Positions 23 through 38,423 of a stretch of DNA of 64,000 bases are shown here, in pieces. Positions within the stretch are counted from its first letter, which is position 1. Each line of letters begins with the position of its first letter. The notes under the pieces were generated by a model, which saw nothing but the letters and a program-made list of their open reading frames with translations, did no database searches and was not told the origin of the DNA. Source of the stretch: Candidatus Sungiibacteriota bacterium (GTDB lineage Bacteria > Patescibacteriota > Minisyncoccia > Sungbacterales > HO2-52-23); assembly GCA_016180435.1 (NCBI GenBank), contig JACPBG010000004.1, positions 59,660 to 123,659 on the forward strand, read 5' to 3'. Both the position numbers and the translations under genes were made by a program.

Positions 23-3000
23 TTGCCTGCGGCCAAAGAACTAAGAACTAAGAACTTAGAACTTAGAAAACCAAAAAGGGAACTAAGTTCTAAATCACTA
101 AGATCTAAGTTCTATGATGCAAAATCATTTTGCATCGTTGTCCCTCCTCCCAACGTTACCGGTTCTCTGCATATGGGACACGCTCTGAATGCCGTTATTC
201 AGGACATCTTGATACGCAAAAAACGAATGGAAGGATTTAGAACTTTATGGCTTCCCGGTACGGATCATGCCGGAATTGCTACGCAAAATGTGGTGGAAAA
301 AGAACTTCGCAAACAAAATATTTCGCGCCACGAATTGGGCAGGGAAAAATTTTTGGCGAGTGTGTGGGAATGGAAAGAAAAATACGGGAATATAATTCTG
401 GACCAATTTAAAAAACTGGGTTCTTCTATGGATTGGTCGCGCGTGCGTTTTACCATGGATGAGGGGTATAAAAAAGCGGTGGAGGAGGCATTTATTCACT
501 ATTATAAAAAAGGATGGATTTACCGCGGAGAGCGCACGGTGAATTGGTGTTCGCGTTGCGCGACTTCCCTTTCGGACCTTGAAATTGAGTATCGGGAAGA
601 GAAAGGCAAATTTTACTATATTAAATACGGCCCCATGGTTTTAGGAACCGCACGGCCGGAAACAAAATTAGGGGATACTGCGCTGGCGGTAAATCCGGTA
701 GACAAACGGTATAAAAAATACATCGGGAAGGAAATTATTATTCGATCGGTGGATTCGTCGGTGGTTCGTGAAGAACAGCCCCGGCTCAAAGATATAAAAA
801 TAAAGGTGGTTGCGGATGAGGCGGCTGATCCGAAATTTGGAACAGGCGTGATTAAAGTAACGCCGGCCCATGATGCGGCTGATTTTGGAATTTATCAGCG
901 GCATCCCGAGATTCTGATTATAAAAGTAATTGGCGAAAACGGACGCATGACTAAAGAGGCGGGTGCGCGTTATGAGGGGCTGAAGGTTTCCGAGGCCCGG
1001 AAACAAATTATTGAAGACCTGGAAAAATTAGGACTCATGGATCATATCGAGGATTACACGCATAACGTCTCGTTATGTTATCGCTGCGGGACAGTGATTG
1101 AGCCGCTTCTTTCCAAACAGTGGTTCTTAAAAATGGATGAATTGGCTAAAATGGCAATTAAAGCCGCCCGCCCCGTTAGAGCCGGCTCTAATGGGGTTAA
1201 ATCCGGAAAAATTAAGTTTCATCCCAAGCGTTGGGAGAAGATTTATTTTGATTGGCTCGGCAATATCAAAGATTGGTGCATATCAAGACAGATTTGGTGG
1301 GGACACCGTCTGCCTGTCTGGTATTGTATGGGCTCGCATATCCAAACCGAAAAAAAAATGGGATTTGCCGGAGATATTGTCCCACAGGTTTTTATCAACA
1401 AAACACGGACTTACCGGTTACGCGATCACGGATTTAAAATTGGTGACCGTGTTGCATTTGAAAACAGCGCTACCGGAGAGATCTTTGGATACGCCGTAAT
1501 TACTGAAATTAAAAAAACAACCGCGGGTGAAATCGATTTAAAAGACCCGAAACATTACAAAATATATAACACCTGCGAGGAACTTATTACAGCATTCAAG
1601 CACCATCCGCAAAAAATAAATAAAGGAACAATCAGTGAAAATACTCTCGTGTGGATTTATACATATCGGTTTGAACCGGCTGATAAATCTGGATCATGCA
1701 TTCGGTTAAATCCCGTTGTAAAGGGCAACTGGTTTTTTGTGAGGCATGGAGAAACGGATTTTAATAAAGAACGTCGTATTCAGGGACAAACCGCTGGAGG
1801 CCCTCTTAATGAATTAGGAAAAAAACAAGCATATGAAACCGCTCAGCGGTTGAAGCCATATAAAATTGATTTAATTATTAGTTCGGATTTGGCGCGAGCT
1901 AAAGATACCGCCGAAATAATTGCCAAAGAGCTTAACGCCGAGATCATTTTTGATGCGGCATTGCGCGAAAGAAATTATGGCATTGCGGAAGGTACGACCC
2001 CTGAAGAGCGAAAACAGCACTACCCCGAATTAGAAGACCGTCTCAAGGAATATACCTTTGTGCCAGACGGCGGAGAAAATTTACCAACCATGGAGAAACG
2101 GATATACCGGGCGCTGGCGCAGCATAAAAAAAATCACCTCCATAAAAATATAGTCATCATATCACACGGCGCCACACTTAAAGGACTTTTTCGTAAGTTA
2201 AAAAATATACCGTTCAACGAGTTTTCCGAATTTACGATCCATAACGCCGGCGTTATTCATGTCTCCATTTCCGATCCATGTGAGAAATGCGGGAGCGATT
2301 TGGCGGAGCAAGACACTAATGTTCTGGATACATGGTTTTCATCCGCGCTTTGGCCTCTGGCAACACTTGGTTGGCCGGATAAAACGGGAGATCTTAAAAA
2401 TTTCTATCCCACCTCGGTATTATCCACGGCGCGTGATATAATCAATTTATGGGTGGCGCGCATGGTATTTTCCGGGCTGGAATTTATGGGAAAGCCGCCG
2501 TTTAAGGATATAATCATCCACGCCACCATTCTCACTAAAGATGGCAAACGGATGTCAAAATCCCTCGGAACCGGCATTGACCCCATGATTTTGATTGAAA
2601 AATACGGGGCAGATGCCGCGCGTTTCGGACTTATTTGGCAGGCCATGGGCAATCAGGATATACACTGGTCGGAGGAGCATGTGGTGGCCGGAAAAAAGTT
2701 TGCCAATAAGATTTGGAACGCCAGCAGATTCGTCCTGCTCCAAATTCCAAATTCTAAATTCCAAACTCCAAACAAATCACAAATTCCAAATTCTAAATTC
2801 CAAACATCGGCGGATAAAAAGATACTGAAACAACTGGAAAAAACAAAAAAAGATGTTTCCAAAAGCATTGATAAATATGAATTTGGACAAGCGCTACATG
2901 CGCTTTACGAATTTTATTGGCACGAGTTTTGCGATGTCTACATAGAAACAGCTAAATCACAAATCACAAATCACAAATCACAAGCAGCAACAGAAAATAT

Positions 3001-3130
3001 TTTACTTTATGTTCTCATTGAATCATTGAAACTCCTACATCCTTTTATGCCTTTTGTTACCGAAGAAATATGGAGCCATCTGCCGCTGAAAGACAAGAAG
3101 CTGTTACTCGTTGAAAACTGGCCCACATAA
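23..3130 (+). CDS. valS: valyl-tRNA synthetase carrying a ~330-aa internal insertion (ASCH/PUA-like + histidine-phosphatase domains); 5' end possibly truncated by window edge (TTG start at 23, frame open to position 2)
   Basis: PPPNVTGSLHMGHA (HIGH), KMSKSLGTGIDP, editing-domain motifs TARPETKLGDTALAVNP and GTGVIKVTPAHD, DWCISRQIWWGHRLP, DTWFSSALWPLATLGWP. Confidence 0.9.
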   Translation: MPAAKELRTKNLELRKPKRELSSKSLRSKFYDAKSFCIVVPPPNVTGSLHMGHALNAVIQDILIRKKRMEGFRTLWLPGTDHAGIATQNVVEKELRKQNISRHELGREKFLASVWEWKEKYGNIILDQFKKLGSSMDWSRVRFTMDEGYKKAVEEAFIHYYKKGWIYRGERTVNWCSRCATSLSDLEIEYREEKGKFYYIKYGPMVLGTARPETKLGDTALAVNPVDKRYKKYIGKEIIIRSVDSSVVREEQPRLKDIKIKVVADEAADPKFGTGVIKVTPAHDAADFGIYQRHPEILIIKVIGENGRMTKEAGARYEGLKVSEARKQIIEDLEKLGLMDHIEDYTHNVSLCYRCGTVIEPLLSKQWFLKMDELAKMAIKAARPVRAGSNGVKSGKIKFHPKRWEKIYFDWLGNIKDWCISRQIWWGHRLPVWYCMGSHIQTEKKMGFAGDIVPQVFINKTRTYRLRDHGFKIGDRVAFENSATGEIFGYAVITEIKKTTAGEIDLKDPKHYKIYNTCEELITAFKHHPQKINKGTISENTLVWIYTYRFEPADKSGSCIRLNPVVKGNWFFVRHGETDFNKERRIQGQTAGGPLNELGKKQAYETAQRLKPYKIDLIISSDLARAKDTAEIIAKELNAEIIFDAALRERNYGIAEGTTPEERKQHYPELEDRLKEYTFVPDGGENLPTMEKRIYRALAQHKKNHLHKNIVIISHGATLKGLFRKLKNIPFNEFSEFTIHNAGVIHVSISDPCEKCGSDLAEQDTNVLDTWFSSALWPLATLGWPDKTGDLKNFYPTSVLSTARDIINLWVARMVFSGLEFMGKPPFKDIIIHATILTKDGKRMSKSLGTGIDPMILIEKYGADAARFGLIWQAMGNQDIHWSEEHVVAGKKFANKIWNASRFVLLQIPNSKFQTPNKSQIPNSKFQTSADKKILKQLEKTKKDVSKSIDKYEFGQALHALYEFYWHEFCDVYIETAKSQITNHKSQAATENILLYVLIESLKLLHPFMPFVTEEIWSHLPLKDKKLLLVENWPT

Positions 3131-4205: not shown

Positions 4206-4787
4206 ATGAATACTTTTTTCGAAAAACTTACCAATTCCAAGCCGCAACCCGTTGCGGCCGATATTGGCGCGGAAGAACGCGATGATGAGGCCGCGGTTGT
4301 TGAAAAAGAAGTTACGCCTTCGCAGCCGTCTCCCAAACGCGCGCCCATGCGTAAAATCGCAGCCCCGGTCCAGCTAAAACCCAAACCAACTCAATTAAAA
4401 GTAGAAAGCGAGGAAGCGGAATCAACGGCAGGGGAGAAAGAAAAAGAACTTGAAGAAGAAGGAGAGTTGACTGTAGATATATATGACAATGGTAATGCTA
4501 TTGTAATTCAATCAACCGTAGCCGGAGTAAAGCCGGAGAATTTGGATGTTTCCATAACAACAGATACCGTGACTATTCGCGGGCGAAGGGAAAAATCCGA
4601 AGAGATTAAAGAAGAACATTATTACTACAAGGAACTTTTTTGGGGTTCTTTTTCCCGCTCGGTCATTTTGCCCGAAGAAATTGATGATACTGCCGCAGAG
4701 GCCGCTTTGAAACACGGCCTTCTCACTATCACGCTTCCGAAGAAAAGAAAAGGAGTGGCGCAGAAACTTAAGGTAAAGGTAACCTAA
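4206..4787 (+). CDS. Hsp20/alpha-crystallin family small heat-shock protein with low-complexity N-terminal extension
   Basis: C-terminal alpha-crystallin-like domain LTVDIYDNGNAIVIQSTVAGVKPENLDVSI...GLLTITLPKK. Confidence 0.8.
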   Translation: MNTFFEKLTNSKPQPVAADIGAEERDDEAAVVEKEVTPSQPSPKRAPMRKIAAPVQLKPKPTQLKVESEEAESTAGEKEKELEEEGELTVDIYDNGNAIVIQSTVAGVKPENLDVSITTDTVTIRGRREKSEEIKEEHYYYKELFWGSFSRSVILPEEIDDTAAEAALKHGLLTITLPKKRKGVAQKLKVKVT

Positions 4788-4958
4788 AAATCGCCATCCG
4801 GCGATTTTTTAGTAAATAAGGGTTGGTGTTTATATGATACTGTTCGGACTCATTTTGAGCAAAATCCCGACTGATTTACCCCTTGCTCGCACTCGGACGG
4901 CTCGGCATTCCTCCCCCCAACCCCCTCCTGCCGAGCCGTCCTCACGGTTGTGGCAGTG
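4782..4958. repeat. left terminal inverted repeat (~177 bp) of a TIR-bounded cassette; contains two strong hairpins (terminator-like, and GGACGGCTCGGCA...TGCCGAGCCGTCC)
   Basis: reverse-complement of 9507-9716 nearly base-for-base (right copy has an extra ~26 bp segment). Confidence 0.85.
4786..4812 (+). terminator. rho-independent terminator hairpin AAATCGCC-atcc-GGCGATTT followed by TTTT; also the outer end of the left terminal inverted repeat
   Basis: stem-loop plus T-run directly after hsp20 stop. Confidence 0.7.
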
Positions 4959-4962
4959 GCAT

Positions 4963-5166
4963 TCACGATTTCAATAAACTAGCTCCAAACTCTGAATGAC
5001 ATTTTACACAAAAACCCTTTAGCGTCATTCCAATTGTGTTAATCTTACCGACACTTTCTTTGTAATAGGTGGTACCCCTTACAATATCGCCACTACATCT
5101 ATCGCAACGTCGAGAAACCCGTGCTTTTGTTTCTTTAAGAAACTTAATGCTATCGTATTTACTCAT
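4963..5166 (-). CDS. small zinc-ribbon protein (CxxC...CxxC), last gene of cassette operon; 4-nt overlap with upstream MTase gene
   Basis: RRCDRCSGD ... CVKCHSEFG cysteine pairs; ATGA overlap at 5163-5166. Confidence 0.45.
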   Translation of the reverse strand: MSKYDSIKFLKETKARVSRRCDRCSGDIVRGTTYYKESVGKINTIGMTLKGFCVKCHSEFGASLLKS

Positions 5167-6014
5167 ACGGATTCAGCAAAAGCGTCCGATAGAATCATTA
5201 CCTCTCTGCCTTTGCGCGATTCATAAGCATTATAGTTGAGAGAAAAACTAACGATTTTTCTTTTTGGATATAATGACCTTATTTCTTTCTTGTTATCGTA
5301 AGTAAGTAACCAGAAAGCATCTCGATTCTCATTAAGTTTTTTTGCAAGTGCTTCGTGATTTTCTTTTTGATAGTGGTTGAGGTAAAGTGTTGCCCCCTTT
5401 TCAAAATAAGGGGGGTCGAGATATATGAAAGAGTTTTTCTTGTCTAAATATTCTTCAATCAATTCAAGGCCATCTTTGTTATATACCGAGATTTTGTCCT
5501 TATATCGGCCAAGTTGTTGGATTTTTTTCACCAAACTTTTCTTATTAAATCTTGCATCAATTTTCCATTTCCCTTTTTGGTTTAATCCACCAATAGGTCC
5601 TCCATCTAAAATCCCGGAAATATTAGTTCTATTTAGAAAAAAGGTTGCAAACCCCAGCTTAAAAAGCCATGATTTTGGATTTTCATAAATTGCCTTTTGT
5701 TTTTTCCATTCGTCAATAGTAATTGGGGTTCTGTAAATCTTCCCTACAAACTTTTCTGAATCAAAAATCGCTGACTGCCAAAACGAGTAAATCGCCCTAT
5801 CAAGATCATTAATCACAATTTTTTTGACCCTGCCAGAAAATAAGAGCGCAAGCGCTGCTCCCGCTCCGCCAGCAAACGGTTCAACGTAAGTGAGATTTTT
5901 CAGACCTTGCTCTTTAATAACTTTTTCAAAAAAGGGCACAAGAGAAGTCTTACCTCCAGGATATCGAAGGGGGCTGTGGTAATTTTTCTGATTTTTGTTC
6001 GTTAGTATTTTCAT
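5163..6014 (-). CDS. Dam-family (D12 class) N6-adenine DNA methyltransferase
   Basis: YPGGK near N-terminus, EPFAGGAG (SAM-binding motif I), IYLDPPYFEKG (DPPY motif IV). Confidence 0.85.
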   Translation of the reverse strand: MKILTNKNQKNYHSPLRYPGGKTSLVPFFEKVIKEQGLKNLTYVEPFAGGAGAALALLFSGRVKKIVINDLDRAIYSFWQSAIFDSEKFVGKIYRTPITIDEWKKQKAIYENPKSWLFKLGFATFFLNRTNISGILDGGPIGGLNQKGKWKIDARFNKKSLVKKIQQLGRYKDKISVYNKDGLELIEEYLDKKNSFIYLDPPYFEKGATLYLNHYQKENHEALAKKLNENRDAFWLLTYDNKKEIRSLYPKRKIVSFSLNYNAYESRKGREVMILSDAFAESV

Positions 6015-6035
6015 TCAATTACATTATACGGCAAT

Positions 6036-6962
6036 TTAAAGCGCCTTCCCATACCTTTGGAGGCGTTTGTAAATAGTCGGTAGTTTGGTTTTAAACCATT
6101 CGCCGTTCCATTCTTGCGCCCAAAAAGCGATGCGACTTCTATCGAAGAGTATGCCGACATCTGGGTAATAAAAATCTTGCCAGTCTGATTCATCAACCTC
6201 GTGAGGAACAAAAAAAGAAAAGATTATCCCCGGCATATCCCAAAAAGAGTAATACTGTTGAAGTTCTTTAATTTCCCGCTTCTTGCTTTTGAAATTGTTT
6301 CCAGCGGCGCATTGGCCAAGTAAAAAGAGCTTACTTTTCCTTCCATCTGGAAAAGGGCGCCAAGCCACAATATCAAGACCGGCATCTTTTTTTTGCGAGG
6401 CATTAGAATTATTTTTAATATCGCCTTCATTAACTTTTATCTTCAAGAACTCCAACGCTCTTCTGAAGGGTTTTTTATCCTGCGTCCATGAATTTCTAGG
6501 TGCGCCAAATTGCAAAGATTGAGCGTTCACCTCTTTACTCGAAAGAAAATTTTCCGCAACCAAGGAAGAAAGTTTCTCAAATAGATCAGAGGTTTTTTGT
6601 TTGTCCCAAACTTTTAGCTCTTTTGCGCCTTTTTCCAGTCCGACATATGACACAAGGAGACAAAATAAATATGCCCAATGATTCTTGTTTGGTTTTTTGT
6701 TTTTCACCTCAACGAGTTTCCCATTGAAACGGAAGGGGTAAACTTTATCCAATTTCCTCAATCGGCTCAATAGTTCGCTTGAGACATCTGTTTTAAGATT
6801 TTCAATTGTTGTTTCTCTGTCTGCATATTCTATCTTTAGCTTTGATGCTAAGTCCTCAATGCTGGACGAGTTATCCTTGTCTAACAACGCGTTTACCTCG
6901 AGCCAGTCGGCAAGCTTAATTTTATTAAGTCGTTCTTTTGGTAGATCAATAACAACAGCCAT
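6036..6962 (-). CDS. hypothetical protein, candidate restriction endonuclease partner of the Dam-like methyltransferase
   Basis: position immediately upstream of the MTase in same operon; no motif I can name with certainty (weak PD-(D/E)xK-like stretch GLDIVAWRPF...LLGQCAAG). Confidence 0.3.
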   Translation of the reverse strand: MAVVIDLPKERLNKIKLADWLEVNALLDKDNSSSIEDLASKLKIEYADRETTIENLKTDVSSELLSRLRKLDKVYPFRFNGKLVEVKNKKPNKNHWAYLFCLLVSYVGLEKGAKELKVWDKQKTSDLFEKLSSLVAENFLSSKEVNAQSLQFGAPRNSWTQDKKPFRRALEFLKIKVNEGDIKNNSNASQKKDAGLDIVAWRPFPDGRKSKLFLLGQCAAGNNFKSKKREIKELQQYYSFWDMPGIIFSFFVPHEVDESDWQDFYYPDVGILFDRSRIAFWAQEWNGEWFKTKLPTIYKRLQRYGKAL

Positions 6963-6968
6963 AGCATA

Positions 6969-8108
6969 TTAATTTTTACCGTTACGCTTTGTTCTCATCT
7001 GTTCTAAAATAGTGTTGGCCAATTCAGCAATTTCCTTCATTTGTTTATAAACCTCCTCGTTTCCTTTATATCGATTTAGATAACCGGCCGTTTTTCTAAG
7101 ATTGTTGAGGGCTTTAAAAACGAAATCTTCCAATTTATAATCCTCTGTATCCGTGTAGGATAAAGCATTTTCGAGTGAAGAAAATTCCTGCGAGTTTTCT
7201 CTTAAGTAGTTTGTAGCCAACTTATGTCCCAGAACATTATCGAGGTATTTCAAATCAGGATTTTGGGATTTAATAACAGATTTTTTAGCGCCATCCTTAC
7301 TCCCAAAGAGAAATTCAAGCAATAACCTAAGATTATTAAAATACTTTCTGGGAACTGGATTTTCAGAAAATATCTCCTTTTGTTTGTTTCTTATACCGAG
7401 ATACTTTCTAGTATTGTCATAACCTAGAATTGTGTAGAGGTGGGAAAAGTAAAATCTTCTCAACTCAACTTCTTCTGCTTTGAAATATCCCTCCTTTTCT
7501 GCCTGCTCTAAAACCCGGAGACCGTTGCACATTTTGATAACGGTCAGGTGTCTGTCTCCGATTCTCTCGGCAATCTTCTCAATCGGTATTTTATATTCTT
7601 TGTGAACCCGAAGTGCATATACGGCCTTACTGTAGGAATCCCATTCTTGTGGGCCATTTATATGCCTAAAGCCCAGATAGGTCCAAAGCGTTTGACGATC
7701 CGGGTATATTGCTACCGGTATCTGTTTAGTAAGTTGTGTCTTTAACTTCTCACTAATCTTTTTTTCTGATTTTAAAAGCGTTTTTATTGCAGCTAATCTT
7801 CTATTACCTTCAATTACAACAAATTTGCCCTTGTGTTTTTTGGATTCAACAGTGAGTAAGGGCTCGGTGTTATAAAAGCCATTTTTTTCAAAGGAATCAA
7901 TCAGCTCGTCCAGATGCATTTCTTTTTGTAGCTTACTAAGAATCTCGTTGTCAGATGCATTTTTTGACAAGCCAGCAAATCGTGGATTCTCGCTATCAAG
8001 TAGCAATCTATCCAACTTAACATAGTTGATTTGGATGGGATCTTGCAGAGTTTTGGTTTTTTGTTCGTTCATATTTTTATTCTTCAGAATATTCCGAATA
8101 CTCATCAA
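6969..8108 (-). CDS. ParB/Srx-like nuclease-domain protein with long C-terminal extension
   Basis: LLLDSENPRF and VIEGNRRLAAIKTLL resemble ParB N-terminal domain boxes (NPR... / (V/I)xEG(E/N)RRxRAA). Confidence 0.5.
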   Translation of the reverse strand: MMSIRNILKNKNMNEQKTKTLQDPIQINYVKLDRLLLDSENPRFAGLSKNASDNEILSKLQKEMHLDELIDSFEKNGFYNTEPLLTVESKKHKGKFVVIEGNRRLAAIKTLLKSEKKISEKLKTQLTKQIPVAIYPDRQTLWTYLGFRHINGPQEWDSYSKAVYALRVHKEYKIPIEKIAERIGDRHLTVIKMCNGLRVLEQAEKEGYFKAEEVELRRFYFSHLYTILGYDNTRKYLGIRNKQKEIFSENPVPRKYFNNLRLLLEFLFGSKDGAKKSVIKSQNPDLKYLDNVLGHKLATNYLRENSQEFSSLENALSYTDTEDYKLEDFVFKALNNLRKTAGYLNRYKGNEEVYKQMKEIAELANTILEQMRTKRNGKN

Positions 8109-9195
8109 GAATTGTATCCGTCATATGTTCCAACCTTTTCTCTTTTGCTAATTCATAAATGGAGTCATAGGGAATATATGAACAGAGCTCCGACAAAGGC
8201 CCTTTCTCCATGACCGCAAAGATTGGGCGAGAAATTTGTTTAAAAACTTCATTTCGTCTGTTGTTGGGCGCAACAATATGAATTTTAATTTCTATATTTG
8301 GCAAAAGAGAAAGTAGATCGGCCATTCTTAAAATACCGGAGTAAATCGACGTCGTTCCCTCAACTTCAAACGCTCGAATTATTGTACGCCCTTGAATCCA
8401 AAGAACGTCGATATTTTTAATCGTTCTTAATGTGATGTCATCAAAAGAAAATGGAAGCTCCTCCAATAAGACATTTTCTTTCGGCTTCCATACTTCTAAT
8501 ACTCCCACGCGATCATTTCTTGGTAACCACACCTTAAAACCTAATTTCTCTCCAATTTCCGAGAGTTTGGCCTGAACCCTGATCGATTCCCGCTCCTCGC
8601 CTACTGGTACTACTTCTTGTGCTTCTTTAGTGGGTTCTTCATCTTCCGGAACTGACACAGAAACTTCCTTTTTGCCAGCCAGACGCATTTTTGAAGATTT
8701 TAATTTCTTTTCATCATTTTCACTAAATTTATATTCAACGAGTTTTTGAGATTGTTCAATGAGTATTTTTTCCAAAAACTCGCAATCGGTTTTTGGCCAC
8801 AAACGAGGACTCGAAAAAATCACATACGTCCATTTGTTGCTATCTTTGGCGAATTCTTTTGTAAAAGAAAGATTATTCCAAATAAAGTCCTCGTGAACAG
8901 GAATCGCTTTTTCAAAAGGTAACCAAACTATAGGTTTTACATTAAAGCGCAAAATAAATGGATCATCTTCTTTTTGAAACAGAGGTGTCTTATCTATAAA
9001 ATATTTACTGGTAATTTCCAAAACACCAACGAAGCGTTGTATCCTTGTTACATAGCAAATAAACTTGTCGCCCGGGCCAATATTTTGATTTTCTACATAA
9101 GTTTTTCTGGAAATCCGAAAACCGCTTACATCCTGTTTGGATTGTTCAAATGCTCGTGCGGTTTCCGGAGAAAATAGATCAATAAAGTAACTCAT
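8077..9195 (-). CDS. EVE/PUA-like N-terminal domain fused to C-terminal putative PD-(D/E)xK-like nuclease domain (type IV / modification-dependent restriction-like)
   Basis: N-term GPGDKFICYVTRIQRFVGVLEITSKYF...DPFILRFNVKPIVWL fits PUA-like beta-barrel pattern; C-term IDVLWIQGRTIIRAFEVEGTTSIYSGILRMADL nuclease-like core; acidic low-complexity linker. Confidence 0.45.
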   Translation of the reverse strand: MSYFIDLFSPETARAFEQSKQDVSGFRISRKTYVENQNIGPGDKFICYVTRIQRFVGVLEITSKYFIDKTPLFQKEDDPFILRFNVKPIVWLPFEKAIPVHEDFIWNNLSFTKEFAKDSNKWTYVIFSSPRLWPKTDCEFLEKILIEQSQKLVEYKFSENDEKKLKSSKMRLAGKKEVSVSVPEDEEPTKEAQEVVPVGEERESIRVQAKLSEIGEKLGFKVWLPRNDRVGVLEVWKPKENVLLEELPFSFDDITLRTIKNIDVLWIQGRTIIRAFEVEGTTSIYSGILRMADLLSLLPNIEIKIHIVAPNNRRNEVFKQISRPIFAVMEKGPLSELCSYIPYDSIYELAKEKRLEHMTDTILDEYSEYSEE

Positions 9196-9197
9196 AA

Positions 9198-9407
9198 CTA
9201 TTTCATTAAATCATCAAGCGATACGCCGAGCGCGTCCGCAATTTTCTTAACCGTCTCAATGGTTGGATTAGGTGTCGTTCCGGCTTCAATCTTGGCGATA
9301 GTATGAAAAGCAAGGTTTGCCCTTTTTGAGAGGACATCTTGAGAAATACCGAGCTTGTTTCGGTATTTCTTTATATTCTCGCCAATTGTCGCTCCTTGCT
9401 TTGACAT
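9198..9407 (-). CDS. XRE-family helix-turn-helix transcriptional regulator (controller-protein-like), first gene of cassette operon
   Basis: LGISQDVLSKRANLAFHTIAKIEAG ... IADALGVSLDDL classic HTH_3. Confidence 0.85.
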   Translation of the reverse strand: MSKQGATIGENIKKYRNKLGISQDVLSKRANLAFHTIAKIEAGTTPNPTIETVKKIADALGVSLDDLMK

Positions 9408-9506
9408 AGTTCGTATAGTTATACTATACTAGTTAGTAGATACTCGTTGGTTTAACTATCACAAGTTTAGTATATGCAATTTTTAGGATTTAATCAATTG
9501 GTTGGT

Positions 9507-9716
9507 CACTGCCACAACCGTGAGGACGGCTCGGCAGGAGGGGGTTGGGGGGAGGAATGCCGAGCCGTCCGAGTGCGAGCCGACCAGCAGGGCGGCGAGC
9601 CAATCAAGGGGTAAATCAGTCGGGATTTTGCTCAAAATGAGTCCGAACAGTATCATATAAACACCAACCCTTATTTACTAAAAAATCGCCGGATGGCGAT
9701 TTTTTAGTAAATAAGG
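9507..9716. repeat. right terminal inverted repeat (~210 bp), outer end is a perfect extended palindrome ccaacccttatttactaaaaaatcgcc-ggat-ggcgattttttagtaaataagggttgg, abutting tRNA-Ala 3' end
   Basis: reverse complement of 4782-4958. Confidence 0.85.
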
Positions 9717-9718
9717 GT

Positions 9719-9789
9719 TGGACCTACGGGGAGTCGAACCCCGACCTCATCCATGCCATGGATGCGTAATGCCGCTTTACTATAGGCCC
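9719..9789 (-). tRNA. tRNA-Ala (anticodon GGC), G3:U70 present, CCA not encoded
   Basis: cloverleaf folds by hand: acceptor GGGCCTA/TAGGTCC, anticodon loop ATGGCAT, T-loop TTCGACT. Confidence 0.85.
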
Positions 9790-9817
9790 GTTTCGATCTT
9801 AAATTGTGATGATATTA

Positions 9818-10303
9818 TTACGGTATATTTTTATACACATCGATAATTCGTTTAATCGTAGCGGCTAATTCTTTGTCGTCCCGGATATCAGTATCTTGTA
9901 AAGATTCTTCAAGCGCCCGTACCGCCGCTTTTTTATTGGATTGAGATTCCATGAATACCGTAAGATGGATAGCCGCGAGCCGCTGTTTTTTATTTTTTTC
10001 GATCATCGGCGCGTCATCGGATAATTTTTGTTCCATAATTTTTTTCAAAATCGATTGCAGCGCGGCACGTTCCGGAGTTGTTTTTTCGACGGTTTCACGT
10101 TTCGATTTCTCTTCCATCCCCACTTCGCCCCCCTTCGCAAAACCCTCCGATGCGGCAACGGAGAGGAATGCACCGAGCGCAAGGGCGGATGTCTTTTTTC
10201 CGATGCGTTTCAATGCCAACGATTTTTCCTGTTTCAATTTATTGTCCGTACGCACCTCTTTATGCTTCGGTATATTCTCTGATGGTTGCCGTTCAAAATT
10301 CAT
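9818..10303 (-). CDS. hypothetical protein with N-terminal hydrophobic anchor/signal, charged low-complexity body
   Basis: ORF only. Confidence 0.4.
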   Translation of the reverse strand: MNFERQPSENIPKHKEVRTDNKLKQEKSLALKRIGKKTSALALGAFLSVAASEGFAKGGEVGMEEKSKRETVEKTTPERAALQSILKKIMEQKLSDDAPMIEKNKKQRLAAIHLTVFMESQSNKKAAVRALEESLQDTDIRDDKELAATIKRIIDVYKNIP

Positions 10304-10343
10304 ATAAAAAATATTTTACGAATAATAATTTTATACGACCGTA

Positions 10344-10790
10344 TTAAATTCGCGTATAAGATAATACCAATAATCCGACTAAAACAATTGTAAACACTAT
10401 TTCAGATTTTGAAAATATCGGTAAAAATCCTCTAATCTTATGCTTGAACGGATAAAAATACTGTTTTTCGTCTTGATCGGGCCAGTCCAGAATTAAATGC
10501 ACAAGATAAGCAATAAAGAAATAAAAAGCACCAGTTATATTTATAAATAATATTGGAATAGTCATAACAGCTGCTCCTAAAATAGAATGCGCATATTTTG
10601 TTTTATAGCGTATATTGTGGGCGTCTTCAAATCTCATGCTGTCTATGATTTTATTCCAAGAAAAAATTTTATGCCGGTATAAGACAAATAAATGGTCAAG
10701 GTCGGGAATAATTGAACCCGCCAGCCAAAACCAAGAAAATTGGTAATTATTTACTGGCATCGTACCTATTATTAAGTGCGCAAAAATCAT
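10344..10790 (-). CDS. membrane-bound metal-dependent hydrolase-like protein (YdjM/DUF457-like)
   Basis: LIIGTMPVNNYQFSWFWLAGSIIPDLDHLF pattern (H..G....PDxDH) and 4 TM. Confidence 0.4.
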   Translation of the reverse strand: MIFAHLIIGTMPVNNYQFSWFWLAGSIIPDLDHLFVLYRHKIFSWNKIIDSMRFEDAHNIRYKTKYAHSILGAAVMTIPILFINITGAFYFFIAYLVHLILDWPDQDEKQYFYPFKHKIRGFLPIFSKSEIVFTIVLVGLLVLSYTRI

Positions 10791-10900
10791 ATTATTTTTT
10801 TATCCTCAATTCTAAACTTTGCACGAACCCATTTTGAGCATAACCTTGGGCCATAGTGGGCGCAAGGTGACCTCCGCAGCTCACCCAGCCCCGCCATTGG

Positions 10901-10938
10901 CTCCTTTTCAATTAGAAATCAATTTTTGTGGGTTTTGG
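10901..10938. repeat. 38-bp inverted repeat, left copy (tccttttcaattagaaatcaatttttgtgggttttggg)
   Basis: perfect reverse complement at 12105-12142. Confidence 0.8.
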
Positions 10939-11040
10939 GGCGTTACTGACTTGCCGCTAGGTAGGCCGGAGTTACCCGAGTATGATGTATAAAATGATTT
11001 GCCACAAACAAATTTATTGTTACACCCCTGCGAACTAATT

Positions 11041-12048
11041 TTATCGCATTCTTAACTCGCACGCTTCTCGTGAGCTCATGGACTTGCCGTCAACAATAAA
11101 AGAATGTTTTATAAGCGAATTATCAAAGGTGCTGCACGGATTCGGATCAGAATAAGAAGTTTTATAAGCTAGGATACACTTTTTAAAGTTTGGCGCATAA
11201 ACAAAAAGTTCGTTGCAAATAGTCACGTCTCTTGATTTTATGGCGTAAGCAACTATACAAGCACCTGTCGCATCTTCCGGTAAATCGATTTTTATATTGA
11301 GATCATTTTTGGGCTCTGGTCTAATTTTATACTTTGAAGAGGTCAAGCGCGCTACTTCTGGTTTTTGGCACTCAACAACTGATTTTGCGGCATAAATCCT
11401 GTTGTAGAAAATAGCTTCTGCAAAAGTATAGTTAAAAATATATGCCCCCATCAATATTACTATTAAAAATATGAACCCTATTCTGTAGTAAAAAAATGAT
11501 TTTACTTTACTAATACCGGATATAACTCCTGCTACCCACATCATGCCTGCCAGGTAAGCCGTGTATAAAATATAGGACATTGTATTAACTAAATATAAAG
11601 GGGTTTCTACATCAAGAAAGAATTTTAAGTTTTCGGCACCGACTAGAAATATGTTTAACAAATAATGCCTTAAAAGCGTTATGCCGACTCCATCATAAAT
11701 ATTAGAATCTCTAACCGCTGGTATTAAAAGTAGTACCAAGAATAATATTGCTAAAAAATATTTTTTGGTAAGAAATTTTTTAGTTGTAAAAAATATTACT
11801 AGTGCATAACCTACCACAAGTCCAAGATTTATTAAGGCGTTAAATGGAGCCCAAAGAATACTAGGAAACAAGGCTGTGTAAAATACAAATCCACATCCTC
11901 CAAAGGAGCAACCATAATAAATCAAAGGCGCTGAAAGCGCTATAATAAACGAGAAGAAAAACAATCTTTTCCTAGAATATACAAACTTTTCTGTAATAGT
12001 TCCAGTGGACATTAATTTAAGAATAACTTGTCGGTCTTTTATTATCAA
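11041..12048 (-). CDS. AT-rich polytopic membrane protein with Cys-rich C-terminal extracytoplasmic region; hypothetical
   Basis: ~8 TM helices, C-terminal CxxxC-rich tail; markedly lower GC than neighbours. Confidence 0.55.
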   Translation of the reverse strand: MIIKDRQVILKLMSTGTITEKFVYSRKRLFFFSFIIALSAPLIYYGCSFGGCGFVFYTALFPSILWAPFNALINLGLVVGYALVIFFTTKKFLTKKYFLAILFLVLLLIPAVRDSNIYDGVGITLLRHYLLNIFLVGAENLKFFLDVETPLYLVNTMSYILYTAYLAGMMWVAGVISGISKVKSFFYYRIGFIFLIVILMGAYIFNYTFAEAIFYNRIYAAKSVVECQKPEVARLTSSKYKIRPEPKNDLNIKIDLPEDATGACIVAYAIKSRDVTICNELFVYAPNFKKCILAYKTSYSDPNPCSTFDNSLIKHSFIVDGKSMSSREACELRMR

Positions 12049-12104
12049 GTTCCGATTACAAGTCTGGTATATGTGCGGATTAGCTCCACTTTTGCGCTAG
12101 CAAA

Positions 12105-12142
12105 GCCCAAAACCCACAAAAATTGATTTCTAATTGAAAAGG
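12105..12142. repeat. 38-bp inverted repeat, right copy
   Basis: reverse complement of 10901-10938. Confidence 0.8.
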
Positions 12143-12194
12143 AAATTCCGCGCGCCCACCTTCTCCGCTAAAGGCGGGTTGCGGGTTTTTGGAG

Positions 12195-12298
12195 CGAGTC
12201 CCAGCATGATAATACTTTCCCGATTTTTGGGGGAGGTTGCCTCGCCGCTTCGCGGCTCGGCTCGGCGGCTTTGCGCAAGGCGCAAAGCCAAAAAATCC
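12195..12298. repeat. ~104-bp inverted repeat, left copy (upstream of recombinase start)
   Basis: reverse complement of 13775-13876 with few mismatches. Confidence 0.8.
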
Positions 12299-12361
12299 CA
12301 CGGCGCGGAAAACGAAAAGGAAGCGGATAAGGAATATCTAAAATCAATAATTTAAGAAATT

Positions 12362-13972
12362 ATGCTCAAACCAAAATATTTTCTCTACGCTCGCAAGAGC
12401 ACCGAGGATGATGACAAACAAGTAATGTCTATTGAAGCACAGCTTTTTGAATTGCGTGAATTTGCCAAAAGAGAAAATATTGAAATTCTTGAAGAATTTA
12501 CCGAGGCGAAAAGCGCAAAGACGCCGGGACGAGAAGTATTTAATTTAATGATGGGAAAAATTGAAAAATTGGAGGGAGTTGGAATCCTCGCGTGGCACCC
12601 AGATCGTCTCGCTAGAAATTCTGTTGATGGTGGTAAAATCGTTTATTTTGTTGATACGCAAAAAATAATTTCTTTGCGCTTTCCGCAATTTTGGTTTGAG
12701 CCAACTCCGCAAGGGAAATTTATGTTGCAAGTGGCGTTCGGACAGAGCAAATATTTTTCTGACAACTTGGTGGAAAATGTAAAGCGCGGTATCCGCCAAA
12801 AACTCCGCCGTGGCGAGTGGTTGACGCTCGCACCCTTTGGCTATGTGAACAATCCGAAAACGAGACAAATTGAACCGCACCCTACCAAATCAAAAATTGT
12901 CGTGCGAGCGTTTGAGGAGTTTGCCAAAGGAACGCATACGCTCAAAAGTATGTCGGAGTTTTTGGCGGAGCTTGGCGTTGAAACAAAGAACCGAACGCCA
13001 CTTGCGAAATGCAGTATTCACCACTTACTTACCAATCGCGCCTATCTCGGTTTTGTCGCGCACCACGGCGAATATCACGAGGGCACATTTCCGCCAATTC
13101 TTTCCCTCGCAACCTTTGAAGCCGTGCAGGAAGTATTGAAAAGGAAAGCGAAACCTCGCAAATCCAAACAGAGGCACAATTTCCCTTTTACCGGACTACT
13201 CACCTGCGGAGAGTGCGGCTCGGCGATCACCGCGCAATTCGCGCACGGCAATGGCGGAACATATCGCTACTATCGGTGCACGCGGAAAAAGGGAAATTGC
13301 GCTCAAAGATATTTGCGAGAGGATTTACTCGTTTCGCAATTAAAAGCACGGCTTCAAAGCGTTGCGCTTTGCGATGAGTGGATAAAGAAAATGTTAGCGA
13401 AAGTAAATGAATGGGAAAAAGAAAAAGTCCACTCATCGCAAACATTCGTCCAAAATCTGGAAACCAAAAGAACGGCCACGCAAGAGAAACTGGATAAACT
13501 TGTCTCGGCGTATATTGACGGCGACATACCCAAAGAAAACTATTTGAAAAAGAAAGAGGAGTTATTGAAGCAAAAAGTTTCTTTTGCGTCCCAAAAATCG
13601 GATTTTGGACGAACGGGAAAGAATTGGATCGAACCCTTGCGGAGTTGGATTTTAGATATACAGAAAGCCGAAAAATTGTCGCAGAGCGACAATTTTGAGG
13701 ACATTAAGGCGTTTGTCCAAAAAGTTGGAACGAACCATCAACTTTTGGACAAATCCGCTTCATTTTCGTTTTCTGCGCCGTGGGATTATGCGGCTTTGCG
13801 TCTCGCGCAAAGCCGCCAAGCCGAGGGGCGAAGCGGCGAGGCAACCTCCCCCAAAAATCGGGAAAGTATTATCATGTCCCCTCGGGAAGAATTGAACTCC
13901 CATTTTCTCCTTAGGACGGAGACGCTCTGTCCGTTGAGCTACGAGGGGGTTTGGATATTCGCTAAAATATAG
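12362..13972 (+). CDS. large serine recombinase (resolvase/invertase catalytic domain + recombinase domain + zinc ribbon); annotated ORF reads through right repeat and tRNA-Arg so true stop may be as given or protein C-terminus is fortuitous read-through
   Basis: YARKSTEDDDKQ (catalytic Ser region), LAWHPDRLARN, VKRGIRQKLRRGEWLTLAPFGY, CGECGS...YRYYRC. Confidence 0.85.
   Translation: MLKPKYFLYARKSTEDDDKQVMSIEAQLFELREFAKRENIEILEEFTEAKSAKTPGREVFNLMMGKIEKLEGVGILAWHPDRLARNSVDGGKIVYFVDTQKIISLRFPQFWFEPTPQGKFMLQVAFGQSKYFSDNLVENVKRGIRQKLRRGEWLTLAPFGYVNNPKTRQIEPHPTKSKIVVRAFEEFAKGTHTLKSMSEFLAELGVETKNRTPLAKCSIHHLLTNRAYLGFVAHHGEYHEGTFPPILSLATFEAVQEVLKRKAKPRKSKQRHNFPFTGLLTCGECGSAITAQFAHGNGGTYRYYRCTRKKGNCAQRYLREDLLVSQLKARLQSVALCDEWIKKMLAKVNEWEKEKVHSSQTFVQNLETKRTATQEKLDKLVSAYIDGDIPKENYLKKKEELLKQKVSFASQKSDFGRTGKNWIEPLRSWILDIQKAEKLSQSDNFEDIKAFVQKVGTNHQLLDKSASFSFSAPWDYAALRLAQSRQAEGRSGEATSPKNRESIIMSPREELNSHFLLRTETLCPLSYEGVWIFAKI
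13775..13876. repeat. ~104-bp inverted repeat, right copy, lying inside 3' end of recombinase ORF and abutting tRNA-Arg(CCT) 3' end
   Basis: reverse complement of 12195-12298. Confidence 0.8.
13877..13948 (-). tRNA. tRNA-Arg (anticodon CCT); overlapped by 3' end of recombinase ORF
   Basis: cloverleaf by hand: acceptor CCCCTCG/CGAGGGG, D-arm GCTC..GAGC, anticodon loop GTCCTAA, T-loop TTCAATT; backbone very similar to tRNA-Arg(TCT) at 17102. Confidence 0.7.
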
Positions 13973-15063: not shown

Positions 15064-15447
15064 TTAGGCCGTGCCAGCCGCCTTTTTTACGCGCTCTACA
15101 ATTTCCGGGAGCGCGAAATTTGCTTTTACAAGATAATCAATCGCGCCCAGGCGTTTGGCTTCTTCAATATCGGTTTCTTCCGAGAGGTTTGAAAGAAACA
15201 TGGCTTTCATTTCCGGTCCTCCGGGTTCGCGCCGTATTTTGCGCAGTGTGTCAAAGCCGTTTTGGTCCGGAAGCAGTACGTCAAGTAGAATAATATCCGG
15301 CGCGGATTCTTTGAATTTTTCAACACCCTCGGCTCCGGTACGCGCCACCGAAATTTCAAAACCCGCATTGGAGAATTCATGCGTCAAAAGTTCCACCATA
15401 AAGGCGTCGTCCTCAACCAATAGAATTTTATGAGAAGTTTCTGCCAT
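15064..15447 (-). CDS. single-domain CheY-like response regulator (receiver domain); start taken at MAETSHKILLVEDD rather than longest ORF (15573)
   Basis: ILLVEDD...DIILLDVLLPDQNGFD...KAMFLSN receiver-domain pattern. Confidence 0.75.
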   Translation of the reverse strand: MAETSHKILLVEDDAFMVELLTHEFSNAGFEISVARTGAEGVEKFKESAPDIILLDVLLPDQNGFDTLRKIRREPGGPEMKAMFLSNLSEETDIEEAKRLGAIDYLVKANFALPEIVERVKKAAGTA

Positions 15448-15451
15448 AAAT

Positions 15452-15571
15452 GGGATTGTTGCCGAATGCGCTTTCGTAGCGAAAATGATGAATTTTGAGA
15501 CAAAATCGCTGAATAAACTTGGCGGCCTATCTGAAAGATAAGCCAAGAAGATGGTATTCGGCAACAGTCCC
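15452..15571 (-). ncRNA. ~120-nt structured 5' leader element immediately upstream of response-regulator start codon; second copy at 62732-62893
   Basis: outer stem GGGATTGTTGCC/GGCAACAGTCCC, internal hairpins CGCTttcgtAGCG and TTGGC..TATCtgaaaGATA..GCCAA; conserved blocks shared with 62732-62893. Confidence 0.45.
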
Positions 15572-15629
15572 AAATATAGTGTATAACTTTATTGGATTAA
15601 AATCAAAAACCGGTTTTGCACAAAACTTG

Positions 15630-37407: not shown

Positions 37408-38181
37408 TTGGAGGTACACATGAATGCGCCGAAAGAACTAAAAACTAAAGCGATTTATTTGAGAAAACGTGGTTTGAGTTATAACGAAATCCGACATCAC
37501 GTGCCGGTTGCAAAAAGCACATTAAGCTTGTGGCTTAAAAGCACCCCCCTCTCAAAAGAGCATAAACGTAGATTATATACCAAAAATATTCTTCTTCTTT
37601 CACGCGGACCAAATAGTCAACACGAAAGAAGAAAAAGGGAGATTGAAGCAATCATAGCACGGGCACATAGTGAGATTCATTTGCCGATTCAGCCGGAAAC
37701 ATTCCAGCTTATGGGCGCGGCGTTATATTGGGCAGAGGGAAGCAAGACGAAGAAATTTGAGTTTACAAATTCAGACCCGCATTTTATTCTTTTTATGGTT
37801 AGATGGGCAGAAAAAATTTTTGGTCTTTCCAGTAAAACCTTTAGTGCTACGTTAAATATCTATCCGCAACAAAACGAGGTACGGCTCAAAAAATTCTGGT
37901 CGGAACTGACAAACATTCCATTACATAATTTCGGAAAAAGTTTTGTTAAGCCGCTAAGCAAGAATTACAAGAAAAATAATCTTTACTACGGAACGATAAA
38001 AGTTTATGTGCCGCGAGGTACTGATATGCGTCATCGCGTTTTTGGATGGATTGAAGCCGCCTTGAAAAATATAGAACCGAAAGTAAATTCTATAACCAAG
38101 CGCTGGATATCTTTAAAAAAAACGCCGCGTCCTGTTAATTTATCCCCCCATAACTCAATTGGTAGAGTACCCGCCTCTTAA
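37408..38181 (+). CDS. HTH-containing protein with LAGLIDADG-like motif (homing-endonuclease-like); 3' end overlaps tRNA-Lys
   Basis: N-term HTH LRKRGLSYNEIRHHVPVAKSTLSLWLK; LMGAALYWAEGSK resembles single LAGLIDADG motif. Confidence 0.4.
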   Translation: MEVHMNAPKELKTKAIYLRKRGLSYNEIRHHVPVAKSTLSLWLKSTPLSKEHKRRLYTKNILLLSRGPNSQHERRKREIEAIIARAHSEIHLPIQPETFQLMGAALYWAEGSKTKKFEFTNSDPHFILFMVRWAEKIFGLSSKTFSATLNIYPQQNEVRLKKFWSELTNIPLHNFGKSFVKPLSKNYKKNNLYYGTIKVYVPRGTDMRHRVFGWIEAALKNIEPKVNSITKRWISLKKTPRPVNLSPHNSIGRVPAS

Positions 38182-38216
38182 GCGGAATGTTCCAGGTTCG
38201 AGCCCTGGTGGGGGGA
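38144..38216 (+). tRNA. tRNA-Lys (anticodon CTT)
   Basis: acceptor CCCCCCA/TGGGGGG, anticodon loop CTCTTAA, T-loop TTCGAGC. Confidence 0.8.
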
Positions 38217-38423
38217 AAATGCGGAGCATTTTCCGAGTTCACTTCCTGCTCTCCGTTCATTCATGAACGCAGAAATTGAAGTTAACTCCGGGCTGTGCCT
38301 AGGAGGCACGGAAATGATTGCCATTATTTTCCCCACTTATTGAACGATGCGCGAACTTATAAAAAAATGTGCTTGACTCAAAAAATGCGTATAATATTGA
38401 TATAAATCAAGTATTATAAAAGC

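Follow-up and report, generated by a model that had tools for sequence, protein, structure and literature searches.

An element conserved across Patescibacteria bounds a composite defence cassette beside a tRNA-Ala gene of Candidatus Sungbacteria

The operon and its flanking repeats

This study concerns a 4.9-kb block in a metagenome-assembled genome (MAG) of Candidatus Sungbacteria, analysed within a 64-kb stretch of DNA (the window, to which coordinates refer unless a compared contig or locus, labelled by an L-number, is named). The block lies between hsp20 and a tRNA-Ala gene and consists of six defence-related genes, here the cassette, enclosed by two long inverted repeats, here the arms. 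The arms carry copies of a non-coding boundary element, named here E, which is defined as beginning with a 5′ motif (M57 or M30), continuing with structured hairpins and ending in a hairpin with a C-rich loop. The finding is more general than this locus: comparison of loci shows that E bounds variable cassettes next to tRNA genes across Patescibacteria. The features of the cassette and its borders are the following.

4786–4958, plus strand: left (tail) arm; terminator hairpin 4786–4809, 17-nt spacer, M57 at 4824–4880, hairpin 4895–4941 and 17 nt, without the 25 nt of the right arm
4895–4941, plus strand: conserved hairpin HP; 13-bp stem with covariation, 21-nt C-rich mirror-repeat loop
4963–5166, minus strand: zinc-ribbon protein, 67 aa, CxxC...CxxC, final operon gene; 69-aa counterpart in the closest sister cassette; outside the conserved trio of genes described below
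5163–6014, minus strand: D12-class (Dam-family) N6-adenine DNA methyltransferase (MTase), 283 aa; Pfam MethyltransfD12 E 2.5e-22; 21 nt downstream of the 308-aa gene
6036–6962, minus strand: 308-aa nuclease candidate; N-terminal winged-helix-like part and predicted C-terminal PD-(D/E)xK restriction-endonuclease fold
6969–8072, minus strand: ParB/Srx-like protein, 367 aa; invariant ENPR and EGNRR motifs, remainder helical
8077–9195, minus strand: 372-aa protein; probable N-terminal EVE/PUA-like reader, C-terminal NmeDI_C-type nuclease domain
9198–9407, minus strand: XRE helix-turn-helix protein, 69 aa, operon gene 1, controller-like; Pfam HTH_3 E 5e-16; PADLOC Control_protein E 4e-10
9408–9506, minus strand: operon promoter region in unique DNA; TTGATT-17-TATACT and a 7-bp inverted repeat
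9507–9704, minus strand (inward): right (head) arm; its 25 additional nt (9581–9604) belong to the ancestral element
9664–9721, no strand: perfect palindrome; tRNA-proximal arm homologous to a relative's tRNA-Ala terminator, distal arm an inverted copy
9719–9789, minus strand: tRNA-Ala(GGC); 3′ end abuts the right arm

An initial annotation had placed terminal inverted repeats at 4782–4958 and 9507–9716, each with a terminator-like hairpin and a 13-bp-stem hairpin with a G-rich loop. A repeat search of the window locates them within a few bases of that claim: complementarity is 100% both over 100 nt (4786–4885 and 9605–9704) and over 74 nt (4885–4958 and 9507–9580), which gives combined arms of 173 nt on the left and 198 nt on the right. 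A BLAST search with the arms returned these two copies and no third in the window. Read inwards, each arm presents the terminator hairpin, a 17-nt spacer, the 57-nt motif M57, the 13-bp-stem hairpin and a last 17 nt. The terminator-like hairpin has the form AAAAATCGCC-ATCC-GGCGATTTTT (left copy at 4786–4809) and the second hairpin the form GGACGGCTCGGCA-21 nt-TGCCGAGCCGTCC (4895–4941 and 9524–9570), so that both predicted hairpins are present in each arm; the 21-nt loop, TTCCTCCCCCCAACCCCCTCC, is a mirror repeat, rich in C on the strand that reads inwards and in G on the opposite one.

Both outer arm ends are good intrinsic terminators, one for hsp20 and the other for tRNA-Ala. The left arm begins one base past the hsp20 stop codon, as expected from the annotation of this arm as the hsp20 terminator. 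The right arm had been placed against the tRNA-Ala 3′ end, and the CCA end of the tRNA-Ala(GGC) gene indeed lies within the perfect palindrome (27-bp arms, 4-nt loop) that continues the right arm. On the plus strand, a 41-nt direct repeat (4786–4826 and 9681–9721; 90% identical) differs only by an inverted 4-nt hairpin loop, its left copy being a 41/41 inverted copy of 9664–9704. Two further candidates in the arms were rejected. Small open reading frames (ORFs) of 47 and 57 aa (MILFGLILSK...) have their frame broken between the copies by the 25-nt indel, and related 70-aa ORFs differ non-conservatively; an outward promoter picked by eye in the reverse complement of M57 (TTGCTC-17-TATCAT) is too weak for a promoter scanner and was not used.

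Inverted repeats can be created by chimeric joins, and the source is a MAG, yet an assembly artefact is very improbable here. Logan contigs from other sequencing runs carry an identical 4.5-kb interior and end 30 nt inside each arm, and another covers 9675–10901 and ends within neighbouring repeats. Such ends are the behaviour of a k-mer graph at a real repeat, and the independent assemblies come from several runs. The same architecture is also assembled through in about 10 unrelated contigs of other projects. In an exact-protein look-up, the contigs carrying the source proteins were only short Logan contigs ending at the arms, with no alternative junctions.

The tight six-gene minus-strand operon proposed earlier, with domains as guessed, agrees with matches in Pfam, PADLOC and NCBIfam; neighbouring genes are separated by 2–21 nt or overlap by 4 nt. 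The promoter-like sequence (9497–9469) lies just inside the right arm, and the 7-bp inverted repeat GTATAGT-ATA-ACTATAC, a candidate operator, sits between the −10 element and the XRE start codon. The 372-aa protein matches NCBIfam PRK00809 (E 9e-7), and its residues 200–349 match PADLOC REase_II (E 6e-16) and, in precomputed assignments, PF27126 (NmeDI_C); no match was found among Protein Data Bank (PDB) sequences. It is probably an EVE-nuclease of Type IV-like character. For the ParB-like gene, the TTG at 8108 listed as ORF start probably makes the frame too long. The MTase matches PADLOC PD-Lambda-5_B (E 5e-113; model PDLC04018, positions 3–273/291) and MTase_II (E 1e-88).

The PADLOC run proposed for the six proteins thus returned Control_protein, REase_II, a partial PD-Lambda-5_A and PD-Lambda-5_B, and left the 308-aa protein unmatched. 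The description of the latter as an unknown protein stands in that it has no family match, and is superseded by the restriction-endonuclease fold predicted for it. Its family has invariant E129, D193, D197, C218 and R275/R277 and almost invariant Q217 and K227. Searches of PDB sequences with single proteins and with profiles gave nothing significant. Profile searches of the cassette proteins detected no transposase or other recombinase, in line with the earlier remark that no transposase lies inside.

The ParB-like, nuclease and methyltransferase trio

Three of the six genes recur together, in other phyla as well. The family of the 308-aa protein is rare (96 clusters among 5.8 billion proteins, with a Pfam domain in none), and in every readable context its homologues lie between or beside a gene for a ParB-like protein of about 365–385 aa and a DNA MTase gene, the three-gene trio being present in 9/9 contexts examined. 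These comprise Parcubacteria contigs, Bradyrhizobium japonicum, in which an N6_N4 MTase replaces the D12 enzyme, and two further large contigs in which the MTase comes first; gene order is permuted between genomes. The trio is also found in the E. coli P2-like phage vB_EcoM-12474III, where it adjoins the portal gene, a classic P2 defence hotspot, and consists of a 372-aa ParB-N protein, a 330-aa homologue of the 308-aa family (hhalign probability 99.1%, E 4e-19) and a C5 MTase. Both partner proteins of the phage trio belong to PHROGs families of unknown function. A neighbour of the best MTase homologue, in a Vibrio phage, was considered as a further partner and rejected, being unrelated to the ParB-like or 308-aa protein.

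In the closest sister cassette, the 308-aa protein is 88% identical, Mrr occupies the position of the EVE-nuclease, and the XRE gene and the small last gene are retained. Because only the ParB-like, 308-aa and MTase genes form a conserved unit, and Mrr can stand for the EVE-nuclease, the XRE protein, EVE-nuclease, trio and zinc-ribbon protein are a composite and not a single system, with one controller common to two systems. The block had been described as a restriction-modification (R-M)-like defence cassette; it is a defence cassette, but its six genes are not one system.

The predicted structure of the ParB-like protein (pLDDT 87.5) matches pNOB8 ParB-N, KorB, PadC, sulfiredoxin and Spo0J, and motifs of the ENPR/EGNRR type are the nucleotide-binding boxes of ParB proteins. 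The MTase class varies (D12, N6_N4 or C5) beside a constant ParB-like/nuclease pair, which points to R-M logic. From these comparisons, the trio is read as a three-component R-M-like system that is related to, without being a member of, PD-lambda-5. The judgement that the arrangement is not a textbook Type I, II or III system is fair for the trio.

PD-lambda-5 is a two-gene system from an E. coli prophage, described as compact and similar to R-M plus abortive infection, whose cloning needed an mrr-deleted host (Vassallo et al. 2022, PMC9519451). Like the trio, it combines a ParB-N-like protein with a DNA MTase and occupies P2-type prophage hotspots. PD-Lambda-5_A profiles match the ParB-like protein only over their first ~130–160 of 440–500 positions (best model PDLC03998, E 2.6e-20, positions 4–128/466), while residues 140–367 and the 308-aa protein match none. 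The match to PD-Lambda-5_B is not specific, as MTase_II also fits and the Vibrio phage MTase with the unrelated neighbour scores higher. The trio further differs from PD-lambda-5 in having three genes instead of two, a separate 308-aa nuclease without a PADLOC model and an interchangeable MTase class. The cassette as a whole resembles Type II R-M systems with a controller (C) protein, in which a small XRE gene opens the operon and the nuclease and MTase genes follow it, and it shares with them a palindromic candidate operator. It departs from them in its additional ParB-like subunit, Type IV-like nuclease and zinc-ribbon protein, and in a controller common to two systems.

No published description of the trio was found in the literature searched, which is not proof of novelty. 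This defence module is widespread yet goes unannotated by current tools, PADLOC recognising only fragments, and its presence in an E. coli P2 prophage hotspot makes it accessible in a model host. A DUF3850 gene lies just past the trio in a Parcubacteria contig (L005, 11961–12227) and in the E. coli P2-like phage (L094, 6513–6965), and may be a fourth, loosely linked component.

The insertion site and element E in other genomes

The initial annotation had proposed a search for an empty site, with hsp20 beside tRNA-Ala, in relatives. Such a site is present in a relative represented by several European Nucleotide Archive (ENA) contigs (L097/L095), which shares ~80% nucleotide identity with the window across ValS-PrsW-hsp20 (hsp20 82% identical) and across HtrA-response regulator-tRNA-His-HisRS. 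There, hsp20 is followed after ~250 nt by tRNA-Ala(GGC), with no cassette between. Since this site is empty with synteny kept, and since the G+C content of the cassette is 37% against 43–45% in its flanks, comparison identifies the 4.9-kb block as an insertion. Alignment shows that the relative's tRNA-Ala terminator and spacer match the sequence at both insert ends, that is, the 41-nt direct repeat. Read most simply, the arms and the host terminator within them arose by in-situ inverted duplication of the tRNA-proximal end and not from pre-formed transposon ends.

The site varies among relatives. The relative carries a different E-bounded cassette, with an XRE gene and a 285-aa gene, between tRNA-Ala and tRNA-Arg, where the window has other content; a third XRE cassette lies beside M57/M30 in another relative (L080), and strain variants diverge exactly at the tRNA of the locus. 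On this evidence the locus behaves as a hotspot of interchangeable cassettes. A strain variant of the relative retains a ~110-nt YdjM remnant upstream of tRNA-Ala (L096, 10907–11015, against window 10678–10791), which makes loss of the p161/YdjM block from the relative more probable than its gain in the window.

The inserted block has several marks of a classical non-autonomous transposon with terminal inverted repeats, moved by a transposase in trans with a long target duplication: its terminal repeats (173/198 nt) are 100% identical bar one indel, it lacks an internal transposase, and the 41-nt direct repeat corresponds to the relative's tRNA-Ala terminator and spacer. We nevertheless consider such a transposon with MITE-like ends (those of a miniature inverted-repeat transposable element) quite improbable. 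The supposed direct repeat is palindromic and differs by the inversion of the hairpin loop, so that it belongs equally to the inverted repeat and is probably better read as part of the inverted duplication; the element is present in one or two copies per genome, which is not MITE-like; arm length and inner boundary vary (44–284 nt); and no transposase family is linked to E in any locus. The arms are also no private transposon ends, for E is conserved across Patescibacteria. Of the two options offered then, a non-autonomous mobile cassette or an insulated defence island, what stands is an insertion without its own recombinase.

The distribution of E was determined in two scans. A genome scan that used one genome per species and only the two 13-nt stems as query yielded 56 exact-stem loci, 54 of them real and nearly all in Patescibacteria, across many classes; the two Streptomyces matches were dismissed as chance, their loops being unrelated. 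Exact-stem copies number one or two per genome, and the 52-nt hairpin core is 100% identical in many loci. A metagenome scan with 32 nt of M57 gave 12 contigs that are 96–100% identical across the 57 nt and otherwise unrelated. Overall, the hairpin and M57 are almost unchanged in about 60 Patescibacteria contigs. In full-length E, M57 or M30 lies 190–380 nt upstream of the hairpin. Compared with this form, the arms of the window are internally deleted copies of E fused to the host tRNA-Ala terminator, the additional 25 nt of the right arm being ancestral. Viral contigs gave no match to the hairpin or M57. In the literature searched no published description of the element was found, which again does not prove novelty.

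E lies downstream of tRNA genes, is directed toward an XRE gene and often has an inverted second copy on the other side of the cargo. In seven genome loci, and also in L077, L078, L080 and L097, a same-strand gene for an XRE homologue lies 100–250 nt from the hairpin on its inward side. Inverted E pairs enclose 1.1–4.6 kb of cargo in ten loci (L020, L039, L055, L071, L075, L077, L078, L083, L084 and L097), their arms being 84–100% identical and, as noted, of locus-specific length, and direct pairs occur in L040/L073 and L044. The cargo is dominated by R-M and other defence genes: MTases (N6_N4, C5, Dam-like and N6), Mrr, GmrSD-HNH, a DpnII-like nuclease, DUF6996/6997, SNF2 and ResIII helicases, a helicase-PLD nuclease and LexA-MTase fusions. 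The initial annotation had named as refuting its proposal a ubiquitous repeat unrelated to the locus, with the gene order kept elsewhere without repeats. This holds in part: the trio does occur without these repeats, and the repeat with other cargo. Its low copy number and its attachment to cassette boundaries nevertheless show that the repeat is not a ubiquitous, unrelated one.

Two kinds of cargo deserve separate mention. In L040/L073 (contigs of 4.6–4.7 kb), the 5′ part of E stands at 1–73 and 4511–4583, in direct orientation, around ORFs of 945 and 209 aa. Three hairpin-flanked cassettes (L025, 4838–6265; L029, 1279–2778; L065, 5751–7610) encode a LexA DNA-binding domain, an S24 self-cleaving peptidase and an N6_N4 MTase in one protein, each beside an unannotated gene of 300–380 aa; by its domains, the fusion would be an SOS-linked methyltransferase.

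The hairpin of E shows signs of selection in its pattern of substitutions. Among hairpins found independently of the stem pattern, double compensatory changes occur at 9/13 stem pairs while the loop is fixed, a value reached by 0/500 shuffles and far above that of slid controls. Two more hairpins are present in full-length E: one with a UNCG loop (GTCCGCC-TTCG-GGCGGAC), in which two pairs covary, and one of 11 bp that shows compensatory changes. In L020 (both copies), L045, L067, L069 and L070, stems and flanks of the conserved hairpin are unchanged while its 21-nt loop is turned round with respect to them, and is hence G-rich, as if a short segment had flipped between the two 13-bp halves of the stem.

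Such structure invites a regulatory reading, in which E would be a structured RNA (a leader, small RNA or processing signal) or a set of insulators and terminators shielding a toxic R-M operon from read-through; E and its complement at the transcript ends would form a long panhandle, and the C-rich CCUCC loop could pair with Shine-Dalgarno sequences. The terminators at the outer arm ends, the better folding of the inward strand than of shuffled sequences (z = −4.7), the covarying and compensated stems with their fixed loop, and the constant co-directionality of E with the tRNA and the XRE gene all fit it. We regard it as unlikely all the same. An Rfam search of the window arms and 26 related loci gave no match to the element, its hits elsewhere being tRNAs, one RNase P and a single group I intron; loop inversion in the five loci would turn an anti-Shine-Dalgarno into a Shine-Dalgarno-like sequence, which is difficult to square with an RNA role tied to one strand; the 13-bp hairpin lacks a U tract; and the predicted operon promoter lies inside and downstream of E. 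This reading also leaves unexplained the repeat ends at the loop centre, described below, and the differences in slot cargo between relatives.

Junctions, recombinases and cassette exchange

The ends of the repeats bear on how cassettes are exchanged. In five loci (L075, L077, L078, L083 and L084), one copy of E has the full hairpin and the other only the 5′ stem and half of the loop (TTCCTCCCC...), after which it runs on into unrelated DNA, usually an XRE promoter, with at least 4 different continuations. Repeats that end repeatedly at the loop centre are what site-specific exchange would leave, and they suggest that the loop centre is a recombination junction.

A candidate recombinase for the cassettes is encoded nearby, to the right of tRNA-Ala, where the window holds the following features.

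10814–10843, plus strand: M30 motif (AAACTTTGCACGAACCCATTTTGAGC), 5′ end of a second, type-1 copy of E
10902–12143, no strand: second repeat-bounded unit; 38-nt perfect arms (10902–10939 and 12106–12143) around a 335-aa ORF
12205–13876, plus strand: unit of a large serine recombinase (LSR); 124-nt arms (12205–12328 and 13753–13876), 92% complementary; start at 12362, homology to 13849

The LSR (12362–13849) has Resolvase, Recombinase and Zn_ribbon_recom domains. The downstream arm of its unit abuts the 3′ end of tRNA-Arg(CCT) (13876–13948), and the unit is absent at the corresponding tRNA-Arg site of two relatives. The 335-aa ORF of the other unit (11041–12048, minus strand) has no family match, and this unit occupies the position of the relative's XRE and 285-aa cassette. 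The arrangement around LSR genes is stereotyped: in all six cases seen, inverted-repeat arms of 98–155 nt (92–100% identical) enclose the gene, the downstream one beginning exactly at the 3′ terminus of a tRNA gene and the upstream one adjoining E at its 5′ end; the LSR is contiguous with E in L078, L052 and L061. Of 56 hairpin copies examined, 35 have 2 kb or more of outer flank, and 4 of these 35 have an LSR on that side within 4 kb; adjacency of an LSR was therefore rejected as a general rule and is kept as a minority association. For the loop motif CCTCCCCCNAA, 0.15 occurrences are expected in the window; there are 4, all of them in the paired arms of the cassette and of the LSR. It was discarded as a mark of LSR arms in general, not being evident in those of L078, L047 and L024. 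In L024 (7019–7355, minus strand), a group I intron (Rfam, 89 bits) directly follows the serine recombinase gene and its tRNA-like 3′ end.

A serine recombinase gene beside or inside repeat-bounded segments in six loci, long and perfectly identical arms typical of frequent exchange, and assemblies that break at the arms would also suit an invertible segment, in which the 173-nt arms let the 4.5-kb block be flipped by a serine recombinase or RecA, like the Mu G segment with gin, and the three repeat-bounded units would be switches. This we judge improbable: with its own promoter, the operon would flip without obvious effect on expression, all six LSR units have one orientation, the XRE gene is always tRNA-proximal, and the opposite orientation appears in no assembly. 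Large serine recombinases are, besides, usually integrases and not invertases.

The explanation to which we incline, with moderate confidence, is that the block is a horizontally acquired, XRE-led composite defence cassette in a slot downstream of tRNA-Ala, with E as a recombination handle. E, and notably its hairpin loop, would serve as the handle for insertion, replacement and duplication of cassettes, the activity being supplied either by the neighbouring LSR or by homologous exchange between conserved arms after DNA uptake. Mobility of the cassette is what the comparison of loci suggests. Judged from domains and folds, the XRE protein would autoregulate the operon from the internal promoter, the Dam-class MTase would mark host DNA and the 308-aa protein would cut unmarked DNA; the ParB-like protein would probably act on the nuclease, activating or positioning it as a nucleotide-gated DNA clamp or loader, and the EVE-nuclease would be a separate Type IV-like enzyme against modified phage DNA.

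Several observations weigh against parts of this explanation. As regards the genes, the EVE domain of the 372-aa protein (Pfam E 2.5e-4, 21.5 bits) is under the 23-bit cut-off, and the canonical ExK of the 308-aa nuclease candidate is replaced by a QCA triplet. As regards mobility, no excised circle, opposite orientation or identical cassette at a second site was seen in the assemblies, all loci come from metagenome assemblies, many of them cut at the repeat, and the host-derived terminator sequence in the arms fits in-situ duplication better than a pre-formed mobile end. Housekeeping genes adjoin some hairpins, and E has RNA-like features and may act as RNA; its role as DNA, with the hairpin as the recombining part, is what we propose. 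The loop-centre junction is not universal: in the window, L071, L020 and L055 both copies hold the whole hairpin and the repeat ends 17–33 nt past it. The LSR as acting enzyme is likewise tentative. It lies 2.7 kb to the right of the cassette and is not contiguous with it, tRNA-Ala and three ORFs standing between, and 31/35 hairpin copies with enough outer flank have no LSR nearby. Sites of large serine recombinases are normally dyad-symmetric about the crossover, whereas the hairpin loop is a mirror repeat.

A broader proposal, possible but held tentatively, is that of a Patescibacteria platform for cassette exchange, with the hairpin of E as a site with loop crossover, placement at tRNA genes and a dedicated LSR in an inverted-repeat unit, by which cassettes would be captured, inverted-duplicated and swapped between distant lineages of the candidate phyla radiation (CPR), together with an uncharacterised three-gene R-M type that reaches E. 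coli prophages. Such a platform would work as an analogue of the integron, with a serine recombinase and with hairpin sites in inverted orientation. Like integron attC sites and insertion sequences in the loops of REP palindromes, E has a structure-conserved hairpin at the boundary, a covarying stem and junctions in the loop, and as in integrons the recombinase gene diverges from the side of the element that faces the cassette. It differs from integrons in that boundaries are often inverted, cassettes have their own promoter and regulator, and one cassette occupies a slot, not an array; no IntI or other tyrosine recombinase was seen in any locus examined.

Comparable arrangements are known. 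Furuta, Abe and Kobayashi (2010, PMC2853133) described R-M units flanked by long inverted repeats as well as 'insertion with long target duplication'; like the cassette, such units have no internal mobility gene, long inverted repeats, an empty site in a relative, a target duplication of tens of bp and a tRNA-adjacent site. Their repeats are private to each case, whereas the arms here derive from one near-base-conserved Patescibacteria element with a selected hairpin and many cargos. Tycheposons and other integrative elements that bring cargo to tRNA genes in streamlined genomes (Hackl et al., bioRxiv 10.1101/2020.12.28.424599) share with the locus a small streamlined genome, strain-variable cargo at tRNA hotspots and a recombinase at the tRNA end, sometimes a large serine recombinase. 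Tycheposons have direct partial-tRNA repeats and often replication genes; here the boundaries are inverted copies of a non-coding element, there is no replication module, and the LSR sits in its own inverted-repeat unit. At the cassette ends only 3 nt of tRNA sequence (CCA) are duplicated, and the ends are inverted, with no direct att repeats. R-M units in long inverted repeats and tRNA-linked cargo islands are thus known kinds, and the present case has a real chance of being a separate system of cassette exchange.

The genomes of CPR/Patescibacteria are tiny, with few CRISPR systems and few mobile elements that can be recognised, and how these bacteria acquire and exchange defence genes is largely obscure. 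If the proposed role is true, E offers a concrete, searchable handle on the CPR mobilome, with a recombination site and a serine recombinase as candidates.

Three observations elsewhere in the window complete the description of the region. The ValS ORF (23–3130, plus strand; 1035 aa) carries a complete His_Phos_1 domain (E 5.5e-47, RHGETDFN) inserted at residues 571–751, between the catalytic and anticodon-binding parts, and the relative's ValS (851 aa) is without it. A palindromic repeat of ~100–170 nt, in at least 2 copies, stands at 15445–15577 (arms 15446–15467 and 15556–15577) and at 62722–62893; it is also inserted near tRNA-Ala in the relative's strain variant (L096, 11069–11234) and looks MITE-like. 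A sequence of ~130 nt (38218–38350) downstream of tRNA-Lys (38143–38217) is ~70–75% like L097 1485–1578 and 3009–3174, which adjoin tRNA-Ala and tRNA-Arg in the relative, and may be a second tRNA-linked conserved non-coding element.

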